From: Candidatus Tanganyikabacteria bacterium
Lineage (GTDB): Bacteria > Cyanobacteriota > Sericytochromatia > S15B-MN24 > VGJW01
Assembly (NCBI GenBank): GCA_016867265.1
Contig: VGJW01000008.1
Coordinates: 458 to 64,457, forward strand
Reading direction: 5' to 3'
DNA: 64,000 nt
Shown here: positions 4,041-17,488 of the stretch, one piece after another
How positions within the stretch are numbered: position 1 is the stretch's first letter
Layout of the letters: the number at the start of each line of letters is the position of its first letter
Notes under the pieces: model-generated
Seen by the model: the letters and a program-made list of their open reading frames with translations, nothing else
Told to the model about the DNA's origin: nothing
The model's database searches: none
Position numbers and translations under genes: made by a program

Positions 4041-4639
4041 TTAAGCTTGCAAGGTGGTCATGATCTTGCGGACATACTGCCGCGTCTCGGCATACGGAGG
4101 AATGCCCCCGTGGGCGCGAACTGCGCCGGGGCCTGCATTGTAAGCGGCAAGCGCCTTGCGAAGGTCCCCGCCGAAAGTGTCGAGCTGCTCCTTGAGGTAA
4201 CGCGCCCCGCCCACCAACTGCTGCCAGGGGTCGCGGAGGTTCGTCACGCCCACGGACCTGGCCGTCGCCGGCATCAACTGCGTCAGGCCACGCGCCCCGA
4301 CGCCGGACCGCGCCCCGGCATTGCCGGCCGACTCAGCCTGCACGAGGGCGCCGAGGACCCTGGGCGAGATACCGACCGTCCGCGCCGCCTTCTCGATCAT
4401 GGGCCACCAGCGCCGGACGGCGGGCGTCAGCGAGGCCGAGGGCCTTGTCGTCACGGCTTGGGCAGCAGGCTTGGTCGGCGGACGGTTGCCGGGCACCGTC
4501 CTCAGGTTCAGGACGTGACCCGGATGGATGACGTGCTTGTTGCGAATCCGGGGATTGGCTCCAGCAATTGTTCCAACGTCATGCCGTGACGGCGGGCCAA
4601 GCTGAAGAGTGTGTCACCCTTGGCGATTCGTACCTGCAT
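4041..4639 (-). pseudogene. LysM + SLT-domain lytic transglycosylase interrupted by a +/-1 frameshift
   Basis: ORF 4508..4717 encodes a LysM N-terminal half (MQVRIAKGDTLFSLARRHGMTLEQLLE). The other frame upstream of ORF 4041..4496 encodes the LysM C-terminal consensus (ANPRIRNKHVIHPGHVLNL). It runs into the SLT catalytic region (VQAESAGNAGARSGVGARGLTQLMPATA ... AYNAGPGAV). The frames meet at plus-strand 4557-4562 (GGCTCC), and one missing G restores a single LysM-SLT protein. Start ATG 4639 has an AAAGGCGGGAG RBS. Confidence 0.55.
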
Positions 4640-5280: not shown

Positions 5281-6276
5281 GTGGAAAGCATGTTTCCCCT
5301 GCTGCTGTTGGCACTGATTGCGATTGCACTCATCAGCAAGGCGATCGTCATCGTCAAGCAGAGCGAGGCCATCGTCGTGGAGCGACTGGGCTCCTACCAC
5401 CGCACCCTCTCCTCGGGACCCAACATCATCTGGCCCATCATCGACATCCCCAGGGAAGTGGAGTGGCGTTACAACGTCGAGAACAGCAAGGGCCGCCAAG
5501 CCGTCGTCCAGCAGAAGGTCCTGCGCATCGACCTGCGTGAGACGGTCTTCGACTTTCCCCGGCAGAACGTCATCACCAGGGACAACGTCGTCGTCGACAT
5601 CAGCGCCTTGCTGTACTTCCAGGTGACGGACCCCGTGAAGGTCATCTATGAAATCGCCAACCTGCCCGACGCCATCGAGAAGTTGACGCAGACCTCGTTG
5701 CGCAACGTCATCGGCGAATTGGACCTCGACGAGACGCTGACCAGTCGCGACACGATCAACAGCAAGCTGCGCTCGATCCTCGACCAAGCCACGCACAAGT
5801 GGGGCATCAAGGTCACCCGCGTCGAACTTCAGGACATCACGCCTCCCCTCGAGATCAAGGGGGCGATGGAGAAGCAGATGCGGGCCGAGCGGGATCGCCG
5901 GGCCGCCATCCTGGAGGCCGAAGGCCAGAAGCAGGCGCGCATCCTCGAGTCGGAAGGCATCAAGGATGCCCAGATCAACCAAGCCGAGGGCGACAAGCAG
6001 GCCCGCATCATGTCCGCCGAAGCCGAGGCGCAGGCGCGTCTGCGCGTCGCAGAGGCCGAGGGCCAGGCCATCTTGCGAATTGCCGAGGCCGTGCGCATCG
6101 CGGGCGGTGATCCTACGGCCTACCTGCTGGGAATCCGCTACATCGATGCCTTCCGGGAGATCAACGCCGGCAGCGACACCAAGACCATCTACATGCCCTA
6201 CGAGGCCTCGGCGATGCTGGGTGCGCTGGGTGGACTGACCCAAATGATGGGCAAGGGCGCAAACTCAGACACGTGA
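5281..6276 (+). CDS. SPFH/band-7 (stomatin/QmcA-like) protein
   Basis: N-terminal TM segment followed by the SPFH core (VKQSEAIVVERLGSYHRTL ... ITRDNVVVDISALLYFQVTDP) and a coiled-coil EAEGQ repeat tail. AAGGAG 10 nt upstream of GTG 5281. Confidence 0.9.
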   Translation: MESMFPLLLLALIAIALISKAIVIVKQSEAIVVERLGSYHRTLSSGPNIIWPIIDIPREVEWRYNVENSKGRQAVVQQKVLRIDLRETVFDFPRQNVITRDNVVVDISALLYFQVTDPVKVIYEIANLPDAIEKLTQTSLRNVIGELDLDETLTSRDTINSKLRSILDQATHKWGIKVTRVELQDITPPLEIKGAMEKQMRAERDRRAAILEAEGQKQARILESEGIKDAQINQAEGDKQARIMSAEAEAQARLRVAEAEGQAILRIAEAVRIAGGDPTAYLLGIRYIDAFREINAGSDTKTIYMPYEASAMLGALGGLTQMMGKGANSDT

Positions 6277-6335
6277 TGTCTGGCACAGCCGGAGAAACAC
6301 CGCGACAATTTGGAACCACGGGGTAAGGGTAAATT

Positions 6336-7397
6336 ATGTTGCCCGTGAGTCCCATCATCGGCAGGCGCCTGCCTGCGTTCTTGGTGACGCTCCTGCTGGC
6401 CCTCGTGCAACCGGCATGCACGAGGGTGGTGCCTGTAGCGGGCGTGCCTGCGCCTGCCTCCCACACGGGGAGGCTTGAAGGCGAAATCCGTTTCGGAGGC
6501 GCACGGTCGACGCAAGCCTACGGCGTCCGGGATGTCGCCGTCGCCGCCACCGTCTCGATCATCGACATGACGACGAGCGAGACCATCGCCACGACTCTGA
6601 CGGATGCCAGTGCGCGATTCAATTTTGCAGCGGATGTCACGGGCAAGCTTGCCGTCGAGACACCGTACATCCTCGAGGCCATCAAGGGCCTGTCGGCCAA
6701 CAGGCCTGGCGTCGCGGCCGTCCGGGTCAGGACCGTCTTCCTCAAGGCCACCACCGGCTTCTACTCGATGAGCCAGAACGGCATCACCATCACGCCGGGT
6801 ACGACCGCCGCCTCGATCATTGCCAGCTTCGAAGGCATGGACGGACGCTTGCTCATCGACCTGTTCGCCGATGACGGCTTCAACCTCATTCTCTTGGCCA
6901 AGGACGCCATCGGCATGACACAGACCAAGTTCGATCTCGTCGACGGCCTTGCCCGACAGGCCATGAGCGAGGACAGGGATCCCGTCGAGGCCATCATCCG
7001 TGATGCAGGAGTCTACAAGCTCAAGGGCGGCGCGGCCTCGGCCGTCAATGAGCTGCGTCTCCTCGCCATGTCGCCCAACCCCGCCCCCGAAGGCGGCATC
7101 GTGACTCTTCTAGGCACCAAGCTGCAGGAAAACGGCAATCGGACAACCGTCAAATTCGGCACCTTGGTGGCGCCCGTTCTCGAGGCAGTCCCCAACGGTA
7201 TCAAGGTGCGCGTCCCGGCCGGGGCCGTCACGGGCACCTTGTCGGCTGTCAATGCCTCGGGCACTGCCACCATGAGCATCAACATCATCCCACCCGTGGC
7301 CGGGCAGAACACGCCGACAGGTGATGGCAGCCGGTTGCCCGGTGGTCAATTGTCCGGCAACGTGCCGCCCGCGATGGGTGGAGCCTTCGAGCCCTGA
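6336..7397 (+). CDS. secreted protein with C-terminal IPT/TIG-like domain
   Basis: Signal peptide MLPVSPIIGRRLPAFLVTLLLALVQPACT. C-terminal IPT-like segment (IVTLLGTKLQENGNRTTVKFGTLVAPVLEAVPNGIKVRVPAGAVTGTLSAVNASG). Confidence 0.6.
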   Translation: MLPVSPIIGRRLPAFLVTLLLALVQPACTRVVPVAGVPAPASHTGRLEGEIRFGGARSTQAYGVRDVAVAATVSIIDMTTSETIATTLTDASARFNFAADVTGKLAVETPYILEAIKGLSANRPGVAAVRVRTVFLKATTGFYSMSQNGITITPGTTAASIIASFEGMDGRLLIDLFADDGFNLILLAKDAIGMTQTKFDLVDGLARQAMSEDRDPVEAIIRDAGVYKLKGGAASAVNELRLLAMSPNPAPEGGIVTLLGTKLQENGNRTTVKFGTLVAPVLEAVPNGIKVRVPAGAVTGTLSAVNASGTATMSINIIPPVAGQNTPTGDGSRLPGGQLSGNVPPAMGGAFEP

Positions 7398-7420
7398 TTC
7401 TGGAAGCAGGAGAATCAATC

Positions 7421-9937
7421 GTGCAAGACCCGACGCAGGCAACTCGCCACCCGGCGAGGTTCTTCAGGTTCGCCGTTGCTGGCGCCCTGGCGCTGGTGCT
7501 GGGTTGCCAGCAGATGGTCCAGCGGGGTGAACCCGCCAGCACCGGGAATCCGGTGACGGCAGGACAGGCTCCGGATGTCCAGGTGGCAGCCATGGCCCCC
7601 AAGCCAGCCCAGCCCGGCCAGCTGACCTCGGCCGAATTCCTCAAGCAGTGGCGGGAACAGAAGATCGGCGACCTCGATGGCAGCGTCGATGTCACGGCTG
7701 AGGTCGGCAGGAAGATCCAGGCCTCGGTGGCCGAGGTCGTGTCCTTCGCGACCATCTCGCTGATTGATGCCGAGAGCAATTCGGCCGCCGCGAGCACCGT
7801 CTCAAATGGCCGGGGCCAATTCACGCTTTCGATGAACGGCTTCATCCCCGATACGGGCCGCGCCTACTATCTGGAAGCTTCCAAGGGCCTGAACGGCCAT
7901 ATGCCGGGCAGCCCGGTCGTGCGGTTCCGCACCCTCGTCCGCTGGAACGGATCGAGCTGGGAATCGCTGTCCGGCAGCACCATCAGCATCAGCTCCCTCA
8001 CGACGGCCGTCTCCATCGCGGCCCAGCTGGCACCATCCACCTTCGACCCGGCGACGCTGATGAACAAGATCAATGCCTCGGTCAAGCCGCCCATCCTGAA
8101 CCGGGCGCCTGCCGCGCCGACGGGTTTCACCGATGCCCAGATTCTTGGGCTGGCCACGGACGTGCTGGCCTTCCTGACGGCCAATATGGACCCCATCGGC
8201 GCCCTGTCGGACGTGGCGCCCGCCATCACCTACCAGAGCACCGACTCGGCACGGCCCGGCCAGACGATCGAAATCCGGGGCAAGGGCTTCAGCCCGACGG
8301 CCACGCAAAACCTCGTGACGTTTGGTGGCAGTTCGCCCGGTGCCATCCTGGCCGGCGGAACCGAGCGCCTGTTCGTCATCGTGCCCGCGGACGCCGCGAC
8401 GGGTTCGCTCGTCGTGACGACGCCCCGGGGAGCGGTCACAGGCATGACGTTCTATGCAGGCCGAGCCAATCCGGTCTTCAAGATTTCGCGGTGGTTCCCG
8501 GCGGCAACCTTCTACCAGCCCGGAGAGGAAGTGACGCTGCTGGGCTTCGGGTTCTCGAACGTCCCGTCGGGCAACACAGTTGTCGTGGGTAACGTCACGA
8601 CGACGCCCTCCACGTGCGACGAGCAATTTCTCGTCTTCAAGGTGCCTGAAGATGCAACGAAGGGACCCATCAGTGTCCGGACCAGCGCGGGCAACAGCAA
8701 TGAGCTCAATATCAAAATCGAGTTCAGACCTGTCATCAAGGACTGGTTTCCGAGGGCTGGTGCCCCGCGAGGGGAACTCCAGATAACCGGCACGAACTTC
8801 GGCAAAGAACGGGGAACTCTGACCATTGGCAATACGGAGGCGAGCATCCTCGCGTGGACAGACACCGAAATATCGGCAGCGGTGGCGAACGGCAGCATTA
8901 CGGGAGACCTGACAGTTACCCGGAAGACTGGTGGGGCGACCAGCCCTGGCCGATTCACGGTGCTGAGCGGCACTATTTCCAGCTGGCAGTCCTCGACGAC
9001 GACAAACCAGTCCCATCAAGGGGGAATCATCGCCCGGAAGGGGAGATTCCTCTACGCGGCTGGAGGGTATTCAAACAGCAACGGATATAACAGCAGTGTC
9101 GAGCGTTGCACCTTGAGCGATGATGGTTCCTTGGGTGGATGGTCTGTCATGAGTGGCGTCAGTCAAGGCTGGACCTGGAATATGTATGGTGGCGAAGGCC
9201 CCAGCAACCAAGCACAAGTGATTGGTAACTATTTTTACGCTTATGCTGGTTATAATCCGGGCGGCTACGGATATAACGCGGTAAATAGAGCCCAGATTCT
9301 TGACAACGGCGACTTTGCCGGCAACTTCTCGCCTTCCGGCATCACGATGTCCCAGAACATCTACTATGTTGGCTATTTCAGGCGCATCCGAAACTATGTC
9401 TATAGCTTTGGCGGCTACTGGAATACGGACATCATACAGTCCGCAGCAATAAATGCCGATGGAAGCCTTCAGCCCTTCCAAAATGTCTCGCGGTTGCCTT
9501 CCGCCATCTATGGTGGCCACTTTGTCACGGCTGGACGGTATATCTATTGCCTTGCCGGCTACAGACCCTGGGACCACGGACACTACGGCTGGATGTATCG
9601 GGCGGAAATCGACCAGAACGGGGCCATCACGAACGGATTCCAGTACTTGTCACGCTCAACACCTTGCAACGTTTACGCAGGAAACACGGCAGTCATCGGT
9701 AACTACATCTACCTTTTCGAAGGCTACGACAACAACTGCACCGGATCTTGGAACCAGGGATACGTCTTCCGGGCGCCCTTGGACGCTAACGACAACCTTG
9801 GAAACTGGCAACAGGTGGGCTCCATGCCTGCAGGGACACACTATCCGAACTACGCTATCGTAGGAAATAAAATTCATATGTGGGGCCACTACGCGAACGC
9901 TCACTACGGAACTATCTTTACAGGCACTATCAACTAA
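7421..9937 (+). CDS. secreted multi-IPT/TIG protein with C-terminal Kelch-like beta-propeller
   Basis: GTG start with AGGAG RBS and a signal/lipobox LALVLGCQQ. Three IPT-like repeats (TIEIRGKGFSP.., EVTLLGFGFSNVP.., ELQITGTNFGKERG..). C-terminal repeats of aromatic Kelch-like blades (FLYAAGGY, YFYAYAGYNPGGYGYN, YVYSFGGYWN, YIYCLAGY, YIYLFEGYDNN). Confidence 0.7.
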   Translation: MQDPTQATRHPARFFRFAVAGALALVLGCQQMVQRGEPASTGNPVTAGQAPDVQVAAMAPKPAQPGQLTSAEFLKQWREQKIGDLDGSVDVTAEVGRKIQASVAEVVSFATISLIDAESNSAAASTVSNGRGQFTLSMNGFIPDTGRAYYLEASKGLNGHMPGSPVVRFRTLVRWNGSSWESLSGSTISISSLTTAVSIAAQLAPSTFDPATLMNKINASVKPPILNRAPAAPTGFTDAQILGLATDVLAFLTANMDPIGALSDVAPAITYQSTDSARPGQTIEIRGKGFSPTATQNLVTFGGSSPGAILAGGTERLFVIVPADAATGSLVVTTPRGAVTGMTFYAGRANPVFKISRWFPAATFYQPGEEVTLLGFGFSNVPSGNTVVVGNVTTTPSTCDEQFLVFKVPEDATKGPISVRTSAGNSNELNIKIEFRPVIKDWFPRAGAPRGELQITGTNFGKERGTLTIGNTEASILAWTDTEISAAVANGSITGDLTVTRKTGGATSPGRFTVLSGTISSWQSSTTTNQSHQGGIIARKGRFLYAAGGYSNSNGYNSSVERCTLSDDGSLGGWSVMSGVSQGWTWNMYGGEGPSNQAQVIGNYFYAYAGYNPGGYGYNAVNRAQILDNGDFAGNFSPSGITMSQNIYYVGYFRRIRNYVYSFGGYWNTDIIQSAAINADGSLQPFQNVSRLPSAIYGGHFVTAGRYIYCLAGYRPWDHGHYGWMYRAEIDQNGAITNGFQYLSRSTPCNVYAGNTAVIGNYIYLFEGYDNNCTGSWNQGYVFRAPLDANDNLGNWQQVGSMPAGTHYPNYAIVGNKIHMWGHYANAHYGTIFTGTIN

Positions 9938-9961: not shown

Positions 9962-10753
9962 ATGAAACGCGTGACACCCCGGGGGGCACTTGTATCAGGC
10001 CTCCTACTCCTCTCCATTCATGCGGGCGGCTGCACCGGCACGGCGGTTCCTGGTTCCGCTGCGACGAACGTGCCCAAGAAATCGCCCGCACCCAAGCCTT
10101 CAGCGGCCGCGCCGCGAGGACCAGGCACGGACAGTATGTCCGGCTCGATCGGGGGGGGCAGCAGCCCGACTCCGTCCCCTGCCACCTCCTCTGCTCCGCA
10201 GGGAGGTCAAACGGCAGGGGAAGCAAGTGGCGGGGCCGCCTCACCAGCGCCGACACCAGCCTCGGGCAGCGGCACTTCAGGCGGCTCAAGCCCTCAGGTG
10301 CCGGTGCCAACTGCAACAACCCCTCCCCCGTCTGGAACTCCGTCCTCGGGCGGAAACGACCCTGCGCCAGGCAACAATCCCTACTTCCCGCTGGAATCGT
10401 CCGACATCAAGTTAATGATTGGCAGTTCCATTGTCGGCAATATGATCAGTACGATCTACGAGCCGGCGCCCGACGGGAACAACTCCCTGAACAAGCCAAC
10501 CACGCTGAAACTGACGGCGTCTGTCTTGCTCAATAACCTCTCCACAGACAGCAGGGCCAAGTGGGAATCCAGGAACAGACTTGTGGCAATTGTTGACGCA
10601 ACAGGGCTCGTGACGGCAGTGGGCCGAGGCAGGACTGAAATTATCGCCAGACCTGCGGATGACCTGAGTTACCCAGCGGGCTACACGGTACCCACGGCAA
10701 CCGCGGTGATAGAAGTTCGTGCCGTCGCGGCCATCGACCTGGTGGTGGAGTGA
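9962..10753 (+). CDS. lipoprotein with Pro/Ser/Gly-rich linker and C-terminal Big_2-like Ig domain
   Basis: AAGGAAGG RBS. Lipobox LLLLSIHAGGCTG. Low-complexity PAPKPSAAAPRGPG...TPPPSGTPSSGG. C-terminal Big_2-like motif (LVAIVDATGLVTAVGRGRTEIIARP). Confidence 0.65.
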   Translation: MKRVTPRGALVSGLLLLSIHAGGCTGTAVPGSAATNVPKKSPAPKPSAAAPRGPGTDSMSGSIGGGSSPTPSPATSSAPQGGQTAGEASGGAASPAPTPASGSGTSGGSSPQVPVPTATTPPPSGTPSSGGNDPAPGNNPYFPLESSDIKLMIGSSIVGNMISTIYEPAPDGNNSLNKPTTLKLTASVLLNNLSTDSRAKWESRNRLVAIVDATGLVTAVGRGRTEIIARPADDLSYPAGYTVPTATAVIEVRAVAAIDLVVE

Positions 10754-13812: not shown

Positions 13813-14751
<939 letters not shown>

Positions 14752-16106
14752 ATCGGGCGACATCAGCTCGAGCCGGCCGCCGTGCCGCTCGGCAATACCC
14801 TTGACGATGGCCAGGCCCAGGCCCACCCCCCCGCTCGTCCGCGCACGGGAAACATCAGCCCGGTAAAAGGGTTCCGTGACCTTGTCGAGGTGCTCGGCCG
14901 GGATGCCGGGACCGTCATCGACGACGCAGACCCTGGCCTGCCGACCCTCGGTCCGGACCTCAAAGAGGATGTGTCCCCCCGTGGGCGTGTAGCGCCAAGC
15001 ATTGTCGAGCAGGTTGCGCATTGCGCGCGCCAACAGGCGCTCATCGCCCAGCACGCGACACGATGAGATGGCCATCGAGAAGCGCACGTCCATTTCCTCG
15101 GGCATCAGCTCCCGCTCCCGGACCAAGGCACGGGCAACCTCAGCCAAGTCGACCTCGGTCCGCACCTGGCCCGAGAGGCGCTGGGCACGCGCTGCCTCGA
15201 GCAGCTCGCTCACGAGGCGCTCGATGGCCTCGAGGTCCTTGCGAACCCTTGCAACGTAGGGTGCCGACTCGGCATCGGCCTGGACCAGCGAGATGGCAAG
15301 AAATGCCCGGGACAGGGGTGCCCGAAGCTCGTGGGAGACATCCGAAAGCAGCCGGTCCTTGCTGGCCATCAGCTCGGCGAGGCGTGCCCGCATGCCCTCC
15401 AGAGTCTCCTCGAGATCGCCGAACTCGTCGCGCCGCGTCCGCGGCACGGGCGTCTCGAGATCGCCCAGGGCCAGTTGGTGCGCCCGCTGCTGGATGCGCC
15501 TGAGGGGAATCACCACCCACAACCACAGCGGGGGAATCAGGATGAAACCCAGGACAACGGGCCCCAGCCAAGGATAGCGGACGAGTGGCGGGGCATCGGG
15601 AACCGGTGCAGGGATGATGACGTGGGCGGCTCCGAGGGGCTGATCCACGGAACCCAGGCGCACCCAGTAGCCAGGCCCCTTGACCGTGAGGCCACCCGGA
15701 CCGGGAGCAGCCGGCCACTGGGCACCCATGCCTTCGACCCGGGGCAGCCGTGTCGTCGGCTTGAGCCAAGCCAATCCCGGCGTCCCTTCCTTCACATCGA
15801 TGGCGACCTCGGTACGTGCCCGACGCAGCACCTCCGGTACCGCATCCCAGGGGACGATCTCGATGCCCATGCCCATCTCGTCACGCGCCCGGGCCACCTC
15901 GCCCGCGCCGGGCAATCGTGCGAATTCATGGCCTTGCATCAGCCGGTCGGAAACCCATCGGCCCTGCGCAAGCATCATGCGGTCCATGGCCCGCAGGCTC
16001 GCCTCGTCCCGTCGGATCGACCACGTGACCAGCCCGACCACCACCACGACCAACAGGAGCAGGGCGATGGCCACGACACCGTACAGGCGCAGGACGACGG
16101 ACCGGA

Positions 16107-16808
16107 TCACCAGGTAAACCTGTAGCCCAGGCCCCGCACGGTATGCAGGTGCCTCGGGCGTCGTGGGTGAGGCTCGATCTTGGCCCTGAGCCGACTGATT
16201 TGGACATCGATGGCCCGATCGTAGACGTCGTGCGCCCCGGCGACGTCCAGGGCATCCAGCAACTGATCCCGGGTGAAAGTACGACCCGGAGAAGCGGCCA
16301 TGACTTCGATCAGTCGGGCCTCCGTGGGCGTCAGGACATAGGACCGACCCTCGAGCCACAGGGTCCGTTCATCGCCGTCGAACTGATTGGCGACGACGGC
16401 AGGCTCGATCACCTCGAGCGTCCGGACCGGCGCCTGCGCTCCGGAGCGCCGCAGGACGGCCTCGATCCGGGCCAGCAGTTCATGCGGATTGAAGGGCTTG
16501 GGCAGGTAGTCGTCGGCACCCAGCCTGAGCCCCCGGATTCGATCCAGATCGTCGCCCCTGCCTGTCAGCATCACGATAGGAATGGAGAGGCCGCGCGCGC
16601 GCAGGTCGCGGCACAACGTGAAACCATCCCGGCCCGGCAGCATCACGTCCAGCAGCAGCAAGTCCGGCACCAATGCGCTGCCGACGACGTATTCCTCAAG
16701 GTCGTGGCCGTTGCCGCGGACCTCCACGGCATAGCCGTGACGCACGAGAAACGTGGACAACAAACCCGCGAGGTCGGGGTCGTCGTCGACTACCAGGAGA
16801 CGCCTCAT
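16107..16808 (-). CDS. OmpR-family response regulator
   Basis: Receiver domain (MRRLLVVDDDPDL ... D in LLLLDVMLPG) plus winged-helix C-terminus (ISRLRAKIEP ... VRGLGYRFTW). GGAGG RBS upstream of ATG 16808. Confidence 0.9.
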   Translation of the reverse strand: MRRLLVVDDDPDLAGLLSTFLVRHGYAVEVRGNGHDLEEYVVGSALVPDLLLLDVMLPGRDGFTLCRDLRARGLSIPIVMLTGRGDDLDRIRGLRLGADDYLPKPFNPHELLARIEAVLRRSGAQAPVRTLEVIEPAVVANQFDGDERTLWLEGRSYVLTPTEARLIEVMAASPGRTFTRDQLLDALDVAGAHDVYDRAIDVQISRLRAKIEPHPRRPRHLHTVRGLGYRFTW

Positions 16809-16882
16809 GGCCCACCTCCACCCTTCGAGCTTGCCCCAGCCATGTTGCATGGTCTTTGCAGGATGCGGTACTCGTGGGGGTG

Positions 16883-17488
16883 ATGATCATCGAGGTTTGG
16901 TCGGACTTCGTCTGACCGTGGTGCTACGTCAGCCTGGATCGGCTGGCCCGGCTTGTGGGCCGCTACCCGGTCACGCTGCGGTGGCATCCGTTCCAATTGC
17001 GACCGGACACGCCTTACGAGGGCGTCCCGTTGTCGCGCATCCTGCCGCCCGCCTATCTGGCGCAGGCTCGCGCTCGCCTCGAGGAGGCGACCACCAGCCT
17101 GGGCATGGCCTATGCTCCGCCGGACCTCGTCCCCAACACCCACCTCGCCCACGAGGCGGCGGCCCACGCCGAGGCCCACGGCAGGGGCGACGCTTTCCAC
17201 CGCGCCTTGTTGACCGCCTACTTCGGGCACGGTCGTGCCATCGGTGACCGCAAGGTCCTGCTGGACGTTGCGGAGCAGGTTGGCCTCGACCCCGAGGTGC
17301 TCGCACGGGATCTCGACAGCGGCGCCCGTTCCGAAGAAGTCGAAGCAGGCCTCGCCTTGGCGCAGGAACTGGGGATCACCGCCGTGCCGACGTTCGTGTT
17401 CCCCGACAGGCGAGCCTTGTCGGGTGCCCAGCCATGGGCGGTCTTCACGAAGGCCATGGAGCTTCAGGGCGTGGCACCACGCACCTGA
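16883..17488 (+). CDS. DsbA/FrnE-like thioredoxin-fold oxidoreductase with in-frame TGA at the first CxxC position (candidate selenoprotein or pseudogene)
   Basis: ORF 16673..16915 (..MIIEVWSDFV*) and ORF 16955..17488 are in the same frame, separated only by TGA 16913-16915. The read-through product is MIIEVWSDFV-[TGA]-PWCYVSLDRLARLVGRYPV..., i.e. the canonical FrnE/DsbA N-terminus (xIxVWSDxxCPWCY) with TGA in place of Cys. GGGGGTG precedes ATG 16883. Confidence 0.55.
16928..16947 (+). ncRNA. SECIS-like hairpin 12 nt downstream of the in-frame UGA
   Basis: GUCAGCC-UGGAUC-GGCUGGC: a 7-bp stem including one G-U pair, with a 6-nt loop containing GG/U. It starts 13 nt after the UGA, which is the spacing of bacterial SECIS elements. 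Confidence 0.3.

Follow-up and report, generated by a model that had tools for sequence, protein, structure and literature searches.

How should a gene be read that carries a stop codon where its relatives carry a catalytic cysteine? This question is raised by positions 16883-17488 (forward strand) of a 64-kb stretch of DNA, here called the window, from contig VGJW01000008.1 of a Candidatus Sericytochromatia bacterium, a member of the class that is sister to the oxygenic cyanobacteria and itself non-photosynthetic. In the mechanical list of open reading frames (ORFs) the locus appears as two ORFs, 16673-16915 and 16955-17488, which belong to one and the same frame. A first-pass annotation had noted this split frame with a TGA at 16913-16915 in place of the first Cys of a C-P-W-C motif, as well as a hairpin with a 7-bp stem and a 6-nucleotide (nt) loop at 16928-16947 at the spacing of a bacterial selenocysteine insertion sequence (SECIS), and had proposed a U-x-x-C thioredoxin-fold selenoprotein (U denoting selenocysteine, Sec). 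The TGA and the hairpin are present at these positions, and the proposal is supported by the same TGA in 13 orthologues, by selection on both sides of it, by the constraint on the hairpin and by covariation in the wider family. From this comparative evidence, 16883-17488 is very probably one gene for a selenocysteine-containing (U11-P-W-C14) DsbA/FrnE-like thiol-disulfide oxidoreductase.

The reading frame and the conserved TGA

The candidate full-length selenoprotein coding sequence (16883-17488, plus strand) comprises 201 codons with the proposed Sec at codon 11 and terminates at the TGA at 17486-17488. It runs from an ATG (16883-16885) through ten codons for MIIEVWSDFV (16883-16912) to the proposed Sec codon (16913-16915) and continues with PWCYVSLDRL; this TGA is the only one within the frame, and no other stops or frameshifts were found. 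The redox motif U-P-W-C is encoded at 16913-16924, and Sec11 and Cys14 would be the sole Sec or Cys residues of the predicted protein. When Cys was written at codon 11, the translation matched the Pfam domain DSBA (PF01323) from end to end (residues 3-192 against profile positions 2-190 of 191, E-value 1.2e-35), and thus the ten codons 5′ of the TGA, which align with the start of the domain, belong to the fold. The best match among solved structures was FrnE of Deinococcus radiodurans (PDB 5CNW; E-value 4.4e-27, residues 3-185 against 14-208), a disulfide oxidoreductase of the DsbA fold, with the TGA aligned on the first Cys of the FrnE CPWC motif. A signal peptide is absent, since the protein opens with its first strand (MIIEVWSDFV), the Pfam match starting as early as residue 3; the product is therefore predicted to be a cytoplasmic protein with thiol-disulfide oxidoreductase/isomerase activity.

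For the comparison with homologues, the contigs of those homologues that had been called as truncated proteins and six species-representative genomes were fetched and read upstream of the called starts. A TGA at the same codon was found in 13 distinct orthologues or assemblies with 52-98% protein identity to the window protein, all following the pattern [YW]SDF[VI]-TGA-PWCYV[SG]LDRL. Three of the genome contigs are colinear with the window over 15-20 kb at 85.6, 77.9 and 73.5% nucleotide identity. The TGA has been kept at this distance with no further stop or frameshift in the frame, and so has survived substantial divergence. In all 73 other readable genomic homologues, which originate from Gallionella, Myxococcaceae, Chloroflexota, Jiangella, Pseudomonas and others, the aligned codon is TGC or TGT. 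The alignment of homologues that the first-pass annotation had suggested, in order to see whether they carry Sec or Cys, returned both types, divided between the orthologues and the other readable genomic homologues.

Of the six genome records with the TGA, five carry the label Candidatus Sericytochromatia or can clearly be assigned to it. Two 'TPA' metagenome-assembled genomes (MAGs) with the TGA are labelled Stenomitos and Oscillatoriaceae. The Stenomitos-labelled contig (L016, DATNQJ010000173.1) falls within the Sericytochromatia clade by its protein sequence, and the Oscillatoriaceae-labelled contig (L012/L018, DATNPP010000284.1), which in L012 also encodes a flagellin (Flagellin_C, 1-1191), groups with the clade. 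The taxonomic labels of L016 (Stenomitos sp.) and of L012/L018 (Oscillatoriaceae cyanobacterium) look wrong.

In public records the gene is split by gene callers because the UGA resembles a stop codon, and the resulting protein calls are truncated at the N-terminus and do not contain the active site. Eleven of the 19 best homologue matches, the four closest among them, are called as truncated proteins of 155-177 amino acids (P0001-P0004, P0011, P0012, P0014-P0017 and P0019), one of which is named 'DsbA family protein, partial' by NCBI. None of the NCBIfam selenoprotein models covers the protein; the sole match was to NF041057 with 28.5 bits against a cut-off of 190.

The downstream hairpin and the wider U-P-W-C family

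The SECIS-like hairpin (16928-16947, plus strand) is composed of a 5′ arm GUCAGCC (16928-16934), a loop UGGAUC (16935-16940) and a 3′ arm GGCUGGC (16941-16947). It is separated from the UGA by 12 nt, is contained in the minimum-free-energy fold and has a predicted energy of -11.7 kcal/mol when folded alone. In all eight Sec-type variants that were folded, the hairpin was likewise part of the minimum-free-energy structure.

The conservation of this segment among the orthologues exceeds what the encoded amino acids would ask for. The block GUC[A/G]GCCUGGAUCGGCU is invariant across the 13 sequences but for one position. Val15 (GTC), Leu17 (CTG), Asp18 (GAT) and Arg19 (CGG) each keep one codon throughout the 12 sequences compared, and elsewhere in the gene such single-codon use was observed in only 4 of 45 columns with a conserved residue (Fisher p = 3.3e-4). 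Asp18 is GAT in all 12 despite a G+C content of 0.84 at third codon positions (GC3), and Asp7 is GAC in all. Measured as the proportion of synonymous differences (pS), the variation amounts to 0.115 within the codons of the hairpin versus 0.54-0.79 in the flanks, which corresponds to an approximately fivefold stronger conservation. These data indicate that the hairpin is under constraint at the RNA level in the orthologues.

The lower stem occurs in two forms. With Ala or Thr as residue 21 (GCC/ACC), the third base of Leu20 is G and the stem runs without interruption; with Asp (GAC), a one-base bulge is formed and Leu20 has either U opposite A4 or C opposite G4 at its third position. Two registers, with or without the bulge, thus preserve the three lower base pairs. 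The two registers may go back to just one or two evolutionary events; they are consistent with a structure and are not proof of it.

Public metagenomes were scanned for the pattern D-F-[VI]-TGA-P-W-C-Y, and matching samples came from soil, freshwater and marine habitats. At least 120 metagenome contigs encode homologues with this pattern; among the matches listed, the frame stays open past the TGA in all contigs, the hairpin starts at +13 after the UGA in nearly all of them, which is the same offset as in the window, and 102 with a sufficiently complete ORF show 30-43% identity to the window protein. The proposed 8-bp helix was represented by 46 distinct variants; 82% of the cells are paired in them, and double-sided changes occur at seven of the eight pairs. 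For this helix the covariation score was 0.50, compared with 0.21 for shuffled alignments (0 of 500 reached 0.50) and 0.06-0.15 when the pairing partners were slid by 1-3 columns.

One soil-metagenome contig of this family (L128) itself carries genes for Sec decoding: selA (5438-6691), selB (6745-8469) and tRNA-Sec (8495-8588) are located approximately 3 kb from the DsbA-like TGA gene, the pattern of which lies at 2632-2655 on the minus strand. This contig ties the DsbA-like Sec family physically to the Sec machinery in one organism. In a rough neighbour-joining tree the Sericytochromatia clade forms a separate branch of the family.

Two further groups of sequences resemble the clade in their hairpins. 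The metagenome contig L182 (around position 1228, reverse strand) encodes VTVWSDFIUPWCYVGLERLNQL and lies outside the Sericytochromatia clade; its hairpin, GUCGGCC-UGGAAC-GGCUGAAC, is much like that of the window and could be an intermediate between the SECIS of the clade and that of the rest of the family. Two Gallionella MAGs (L019 and L020, around 10025-10075) contain TGC at the active site and are the closest Cys-type homologues (46% identity), and the Gallionella Cys clade was placed as sister to the Sericytochromatia clade in the rough neighbour-joining tree. Both MAGs keep a weaker version of the hairpin (AUCAGUC-UGGAUC-GGCUGAC in L019), and 21 nt of the hairpin region of L019 are identical to some Sericytochromatia sequences. 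The Gallionella hairpin could be a 'fossil' SECIS that was left after a change from Sec to Cys, or could reflect lateral transfer; according to a 2026 review the Sec-to-Cys direction is rare outside FdhA and SelD (PMC13188914).

Alternative readings of the TGA

Several observations weigh against the locus being a selenoprotein gene. Selenium incorporation is a bioinformatic prediction here, as it is for most DsbA-like selenoproteins. Regarding the hairpin, the fold of a 71-nt segment had a z-score of -1.67 and was equalled by 10 of 200 shuffles (G+C content of the window 68%), and an equally stable local hairpin follows 48 of the 1323 TGA trinucleotides in the window (3.6%). The hairpin is hence unremarkable by itself in DNA with 68% G+C, and the case rests on the comparative evidence. 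RNAalifold applied to the 13 Sericytochromatia sequences returned just the upper 4 bp and no pair that changes on both sides; in this clade the lower stem has its two registers and the sequence hardly varies. The covariation in the wider family and the synonymous rates were more informative. No SECIS model of Rfam was matched, either in the window at gathering thresholds or in 16860-17020 with permissive settings, where only chance-level matches to miRNA and snoRNA models were obtained. A clear Shine-Dalgarno sequence is missing before the ATG at 16883 in the window and in its close relatives. As to the decoding machinery, no tRNA of any kind, tRNA-Sec included, was found by ARAGORN in the 64-kb window and ten related loci, and no homologues of selA, selB or selD were found by tblastn with the E. 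coli proteins SelA, SelB and SelD in the window and in L001-L018; in this search approximately 150 kb of related Sericytochromatia contigs, in genome pieces of 7-20 kb, were covered. The absence of sel genes and tRNA-Sec from the window, as stated in the first-pass annotation, was thereby confirmed, with ARAGORN, Rfam and tblastn all returning nothing. Finally, reviews count Cyanobacteria with the small number of lineages in which Sec appears to be missing (PMC1794560, PMC9312934). No link of Sericytochromatia or Melainabacteria with selenocysteine was found in the literature searched.

Among the alternative explanations, the one that survives best accepts that the UGA is recoded and disputes only the residue. 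The UGA would then be translated as Cys via a SelB/tRNA-Sec-like system, or as Trp, Cys or Arg by near-cognate read-through stimulated by the hairpin. Genome surveys have led to proposals of Sec-machinery variants that incorporate Cys. This explanation draws on the fact that Sec machinery was not found in the searched sequence of the lineage and that the comparative evidence concerns recoding and not the identity of the residue. However, the position is that of the catalytic Cys, and pairs of Sec and Cys at such a position define known selenoproteins. The family itself is recognised as one of selenoproteins (PMC1088965), one of its members, L128, lies beside selA-selB-tRNA-Sec, and TGC or TGT would serve if Cys were wanted, as is the case in the other 73 homologues that were read. 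A residue other than Sec is consequently regarded as improbable, and the inserted residue would be selenocysteine.

A second explanation follows the gene-caller annotation of 155-177 amino acids and holds that only a truncated protein is made from a downstream start such as the GTG at 16955, with neither the first strand nor the CxxC motif; the upstream part would be an untranslated leader and the hairpin regulatory or incidental. The start region and the substitution pattern bear directly on this. An ATG is present 10-12 codons 5′ of the TGA in every orthologue, and it is preceded by a GGAGG Shine-Dalgarno sequence at a distance of 7-9 nt in L004, L005, L011 and L012. Stop codons in the same frame 5-8 codons 5′ of the ATG in L008, L010 and L012 exclude a longer N-terminus. 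In the window a GGGGG ends 2 nt before the ATG, and in L001 nothing resembling a Shine-Dalgarno sequence is present at this place. The divergent response-regulator gene probably starts only approximately 74 bp away, and the leader of the mRNA may therefore be very short or nil.

Proportions of nonsynonymous differences (pN) and pS were summed over all 78 sequence pairs of the 13 orthologues. For the nine codons 5′ of the TGA, pS was 0.54 and pN/pS 0.40, which compares with a pN/pS of 0.35 for codons +12 to +40. Directly 3′ of the TGA the codons for P-W-C-Y show a pN of 0 at a pS of 0.785; P, W and C do not differ among the 12 tabulated orthologues, while the synonymous sites vary freely. Between codons -9 and +13 relative to the TGA, a region located 5′ of the called downstream starts, pN/pS was 0.32. 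Neither a leader nor the fragment of a dead gene would give this pattern, which indicates purifying selection on both sides of the TGA. Moreover, the called starts lie at differing, non-homologous positions between species, the Pfam match begins at residue 3, and a product lacking residues 1-24 would have no active site. The truncated protein from GTG 16955, which the first-pass annotation had also considered, is contradicted by these results and is very improbable.

The other reservation of that annotation, a TGC-to-TGA pseudogene or a sequencing or assembly error, had in its favour that TGA is one base away from TGC and that the window contains no Sec machinery. It did not hold up, given that 13 independent assemblies from differing samples and species share the TGA, some of them from genomes with 74-86% DNA identity, and that the frame is otherwise intact and under ongoing selection on both sides; its probability is minimal. 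A reassignment of UGA to a sense codon throughout the genome, as in genetic code 4 or 25, has nothing in its favour beyond the in-frame TGA itself and can practically be dismissed, as TGA is the stop codon of 23 of the 34 likely genes of the window, including this one at 17486-17488, and where further in-frame TGAs flanked by coding signal were sought in the window, the scan turned up nothing but neighbouring genes that share a frame and antisense frames, none of them convincing.

If the gene is read as a selenoprotein gene, translation would start at the ATG at 16883 and proceed to the UGA at 16913-16915. The hairpin 12 nt past this UGA, with its G-containing loop UGGAUC, would act like a bacterial SECIS and be bound by SelB, recruiting SelB-GTP-Sec-tRNA(Sec), so that Sec would be inserted and the chain not terminated. 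The product would cycle between a selenolate/thiol and a selenenylsulfide form with the selenolate as nucleophile, and would serve as a fast disulfide reductase or isomerase, as is reported for FrnE, its closest characterised Cys homologue.

Gene context and relation to known systems

In the window the DsbA-like gene is divergent from a minus-strand pair at 14710-16850, which encodes an OmpR-family response regulator and a HAMP/HisKA histidine kinase; this arrangement is kept in the three colinear Sericytochromatia genomes. In a second subclade (L004:200-6500 and L005:400-6300) the DsbA-like TGA gene is found beside a cluster for sulfur and copper handling. In both contigs this cluster contains two or three rhodaneses, a CsoR-like repressor, a thioredoxin, SCO1 and a PCuAC/LpqE-like protein, and in L004 additionally DsrE, TusA and TauE. 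This context hints at a role in the trafficking of sulfur or copper or in the corresponding stress.

In a third subclade (L012 and L215) a peroxiredoxin gene that itself contains a TGA is located 0.5-2 kb from the DsbA-like TGA gene. The BCP/PrxQ-type peroxiredoxin (L012:4146-4673 with TGA 4320-4322; L215:197-760 with TGA 395-397) matches positions 1-123 of 124 of the AhpC-TSA profile, and its TGA stands at the peroxidatic Cys (AFTPGU or AFTPVU). A conserved hairpin, GGUCUC-GGUC-GAGACC, follows 15 nt 3′ of the TGA. Five peroxiredoxin homologues in the database are called as fragments that start just past the TGA position; in the contigs themselves, the NCBI record gives one product of 175 amino acids across the TGA and the Logan contig is called as two genes. 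This peroxiredoxin is a second candidate selenoprotein of the lineage, and the gene contexts of the three subclades fit a function under redox or metal stress.

Taken together, a broader proposition comes out moderately ahead: Sericytochromatia would have working Sec decoding and at least two selenoproteins, namely the U-P-W-C DsbA/FrnE-like protein and, in some of them, a TxxU peroxiredoxin, and the Gallionella Cys clade with its weakened hairpin would represent a reversion from Sec to Cys. If this is true, the Sec trait was either ancestral and lost in the oxygenic cyanobacteria, or gained laterally. The use of Sec would thus be extended to Sericytochromatia, within a phylum that surveys describe as lacking it, which bears on the loss or gain of Sec around the origin of the oxygenic cyanobacteria. 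Recognition of the gene also mends a systematic misannotation of the whole clade, with its truncated calls and no NCBIfam rule. Neither the enzyme family nor the recoding mechanism is new; the finding adds usefully to what is known without being surprising, and the main novelty lies in the host lineage.

Of the solved relatives, FrnE has an active site that matches the predicted protein except for the exchange of Sec and Cys (WSD-x-x-[C/U]PWCY); the two domains also begin alike in the alignment. FrnE is a Cys enzyme of 260 amino acids with a C-terminal extension, whereas the window protein comprises 201 amino acids with Cys14 as its only cysteine. A second CxxxxC motif is located in this extension of FrnE and has no counterpart in the window protein, whose last residue is 201. 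Periplasmic DsbA of the E. coli type differs in having a signal peptide and a CPHC motif, compared with UPWC and no signal peptide in the window protein.

The SelB-binding SECIS of E. coli fdhF is likewise a hairpin within the coding region approximately 11-12 nt after the UGA with a G in the apical loop. Its single bulged pyrimidine has a parallel in the 3′ arm in 9 of the 13 orthologues, whereas the window copy is free of a bulge, and the two elements differ in loop (GGUC in fdhF versus UGGAUC in the window) and in sequence.

The closest correspondence is with the DsbA-like UxxC selenoproteins (COG2761/PF01323, 'DsbA-like protein form 1'), which were first described from the Sargasso Sea metagenome by Zhang, Fomenko and Gladyshev in 2005 (PMC1088965), were counted in 41 bacterial genomes (PMC5029168) and are listed as a family in reviews of 2022 and 2026 (PMC9312934, PMC13188914). 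The window protein shares with them the Pfam domain, the U-x-x-C motif with Sec at the position of the first Cys and the existence of widespread Cys homologues. Features given for bacterial SECIS elements are a stem-loop directly 3′ of the UGA and a small apical loop with a guanosine (PMC1088965), and a small, G-containing apical loop directly 3′ of the UGA is found in both. The differences concern the loop, which is 6 nt long in the Sericytochromatia clade and 3-7 nt, mostly 3 or 5, in other branches; the sequence of the hairpin, which is the clade's own (GUC[A/G]GCC-UGGAUC-GGCU..); and the host, as the lineage of the window lies outside those reported to use Sec. The protein, accordingly, adds a new member and a new lineage to a selenoprotein family that is already known, with a recoding mechanism that is likewise known.

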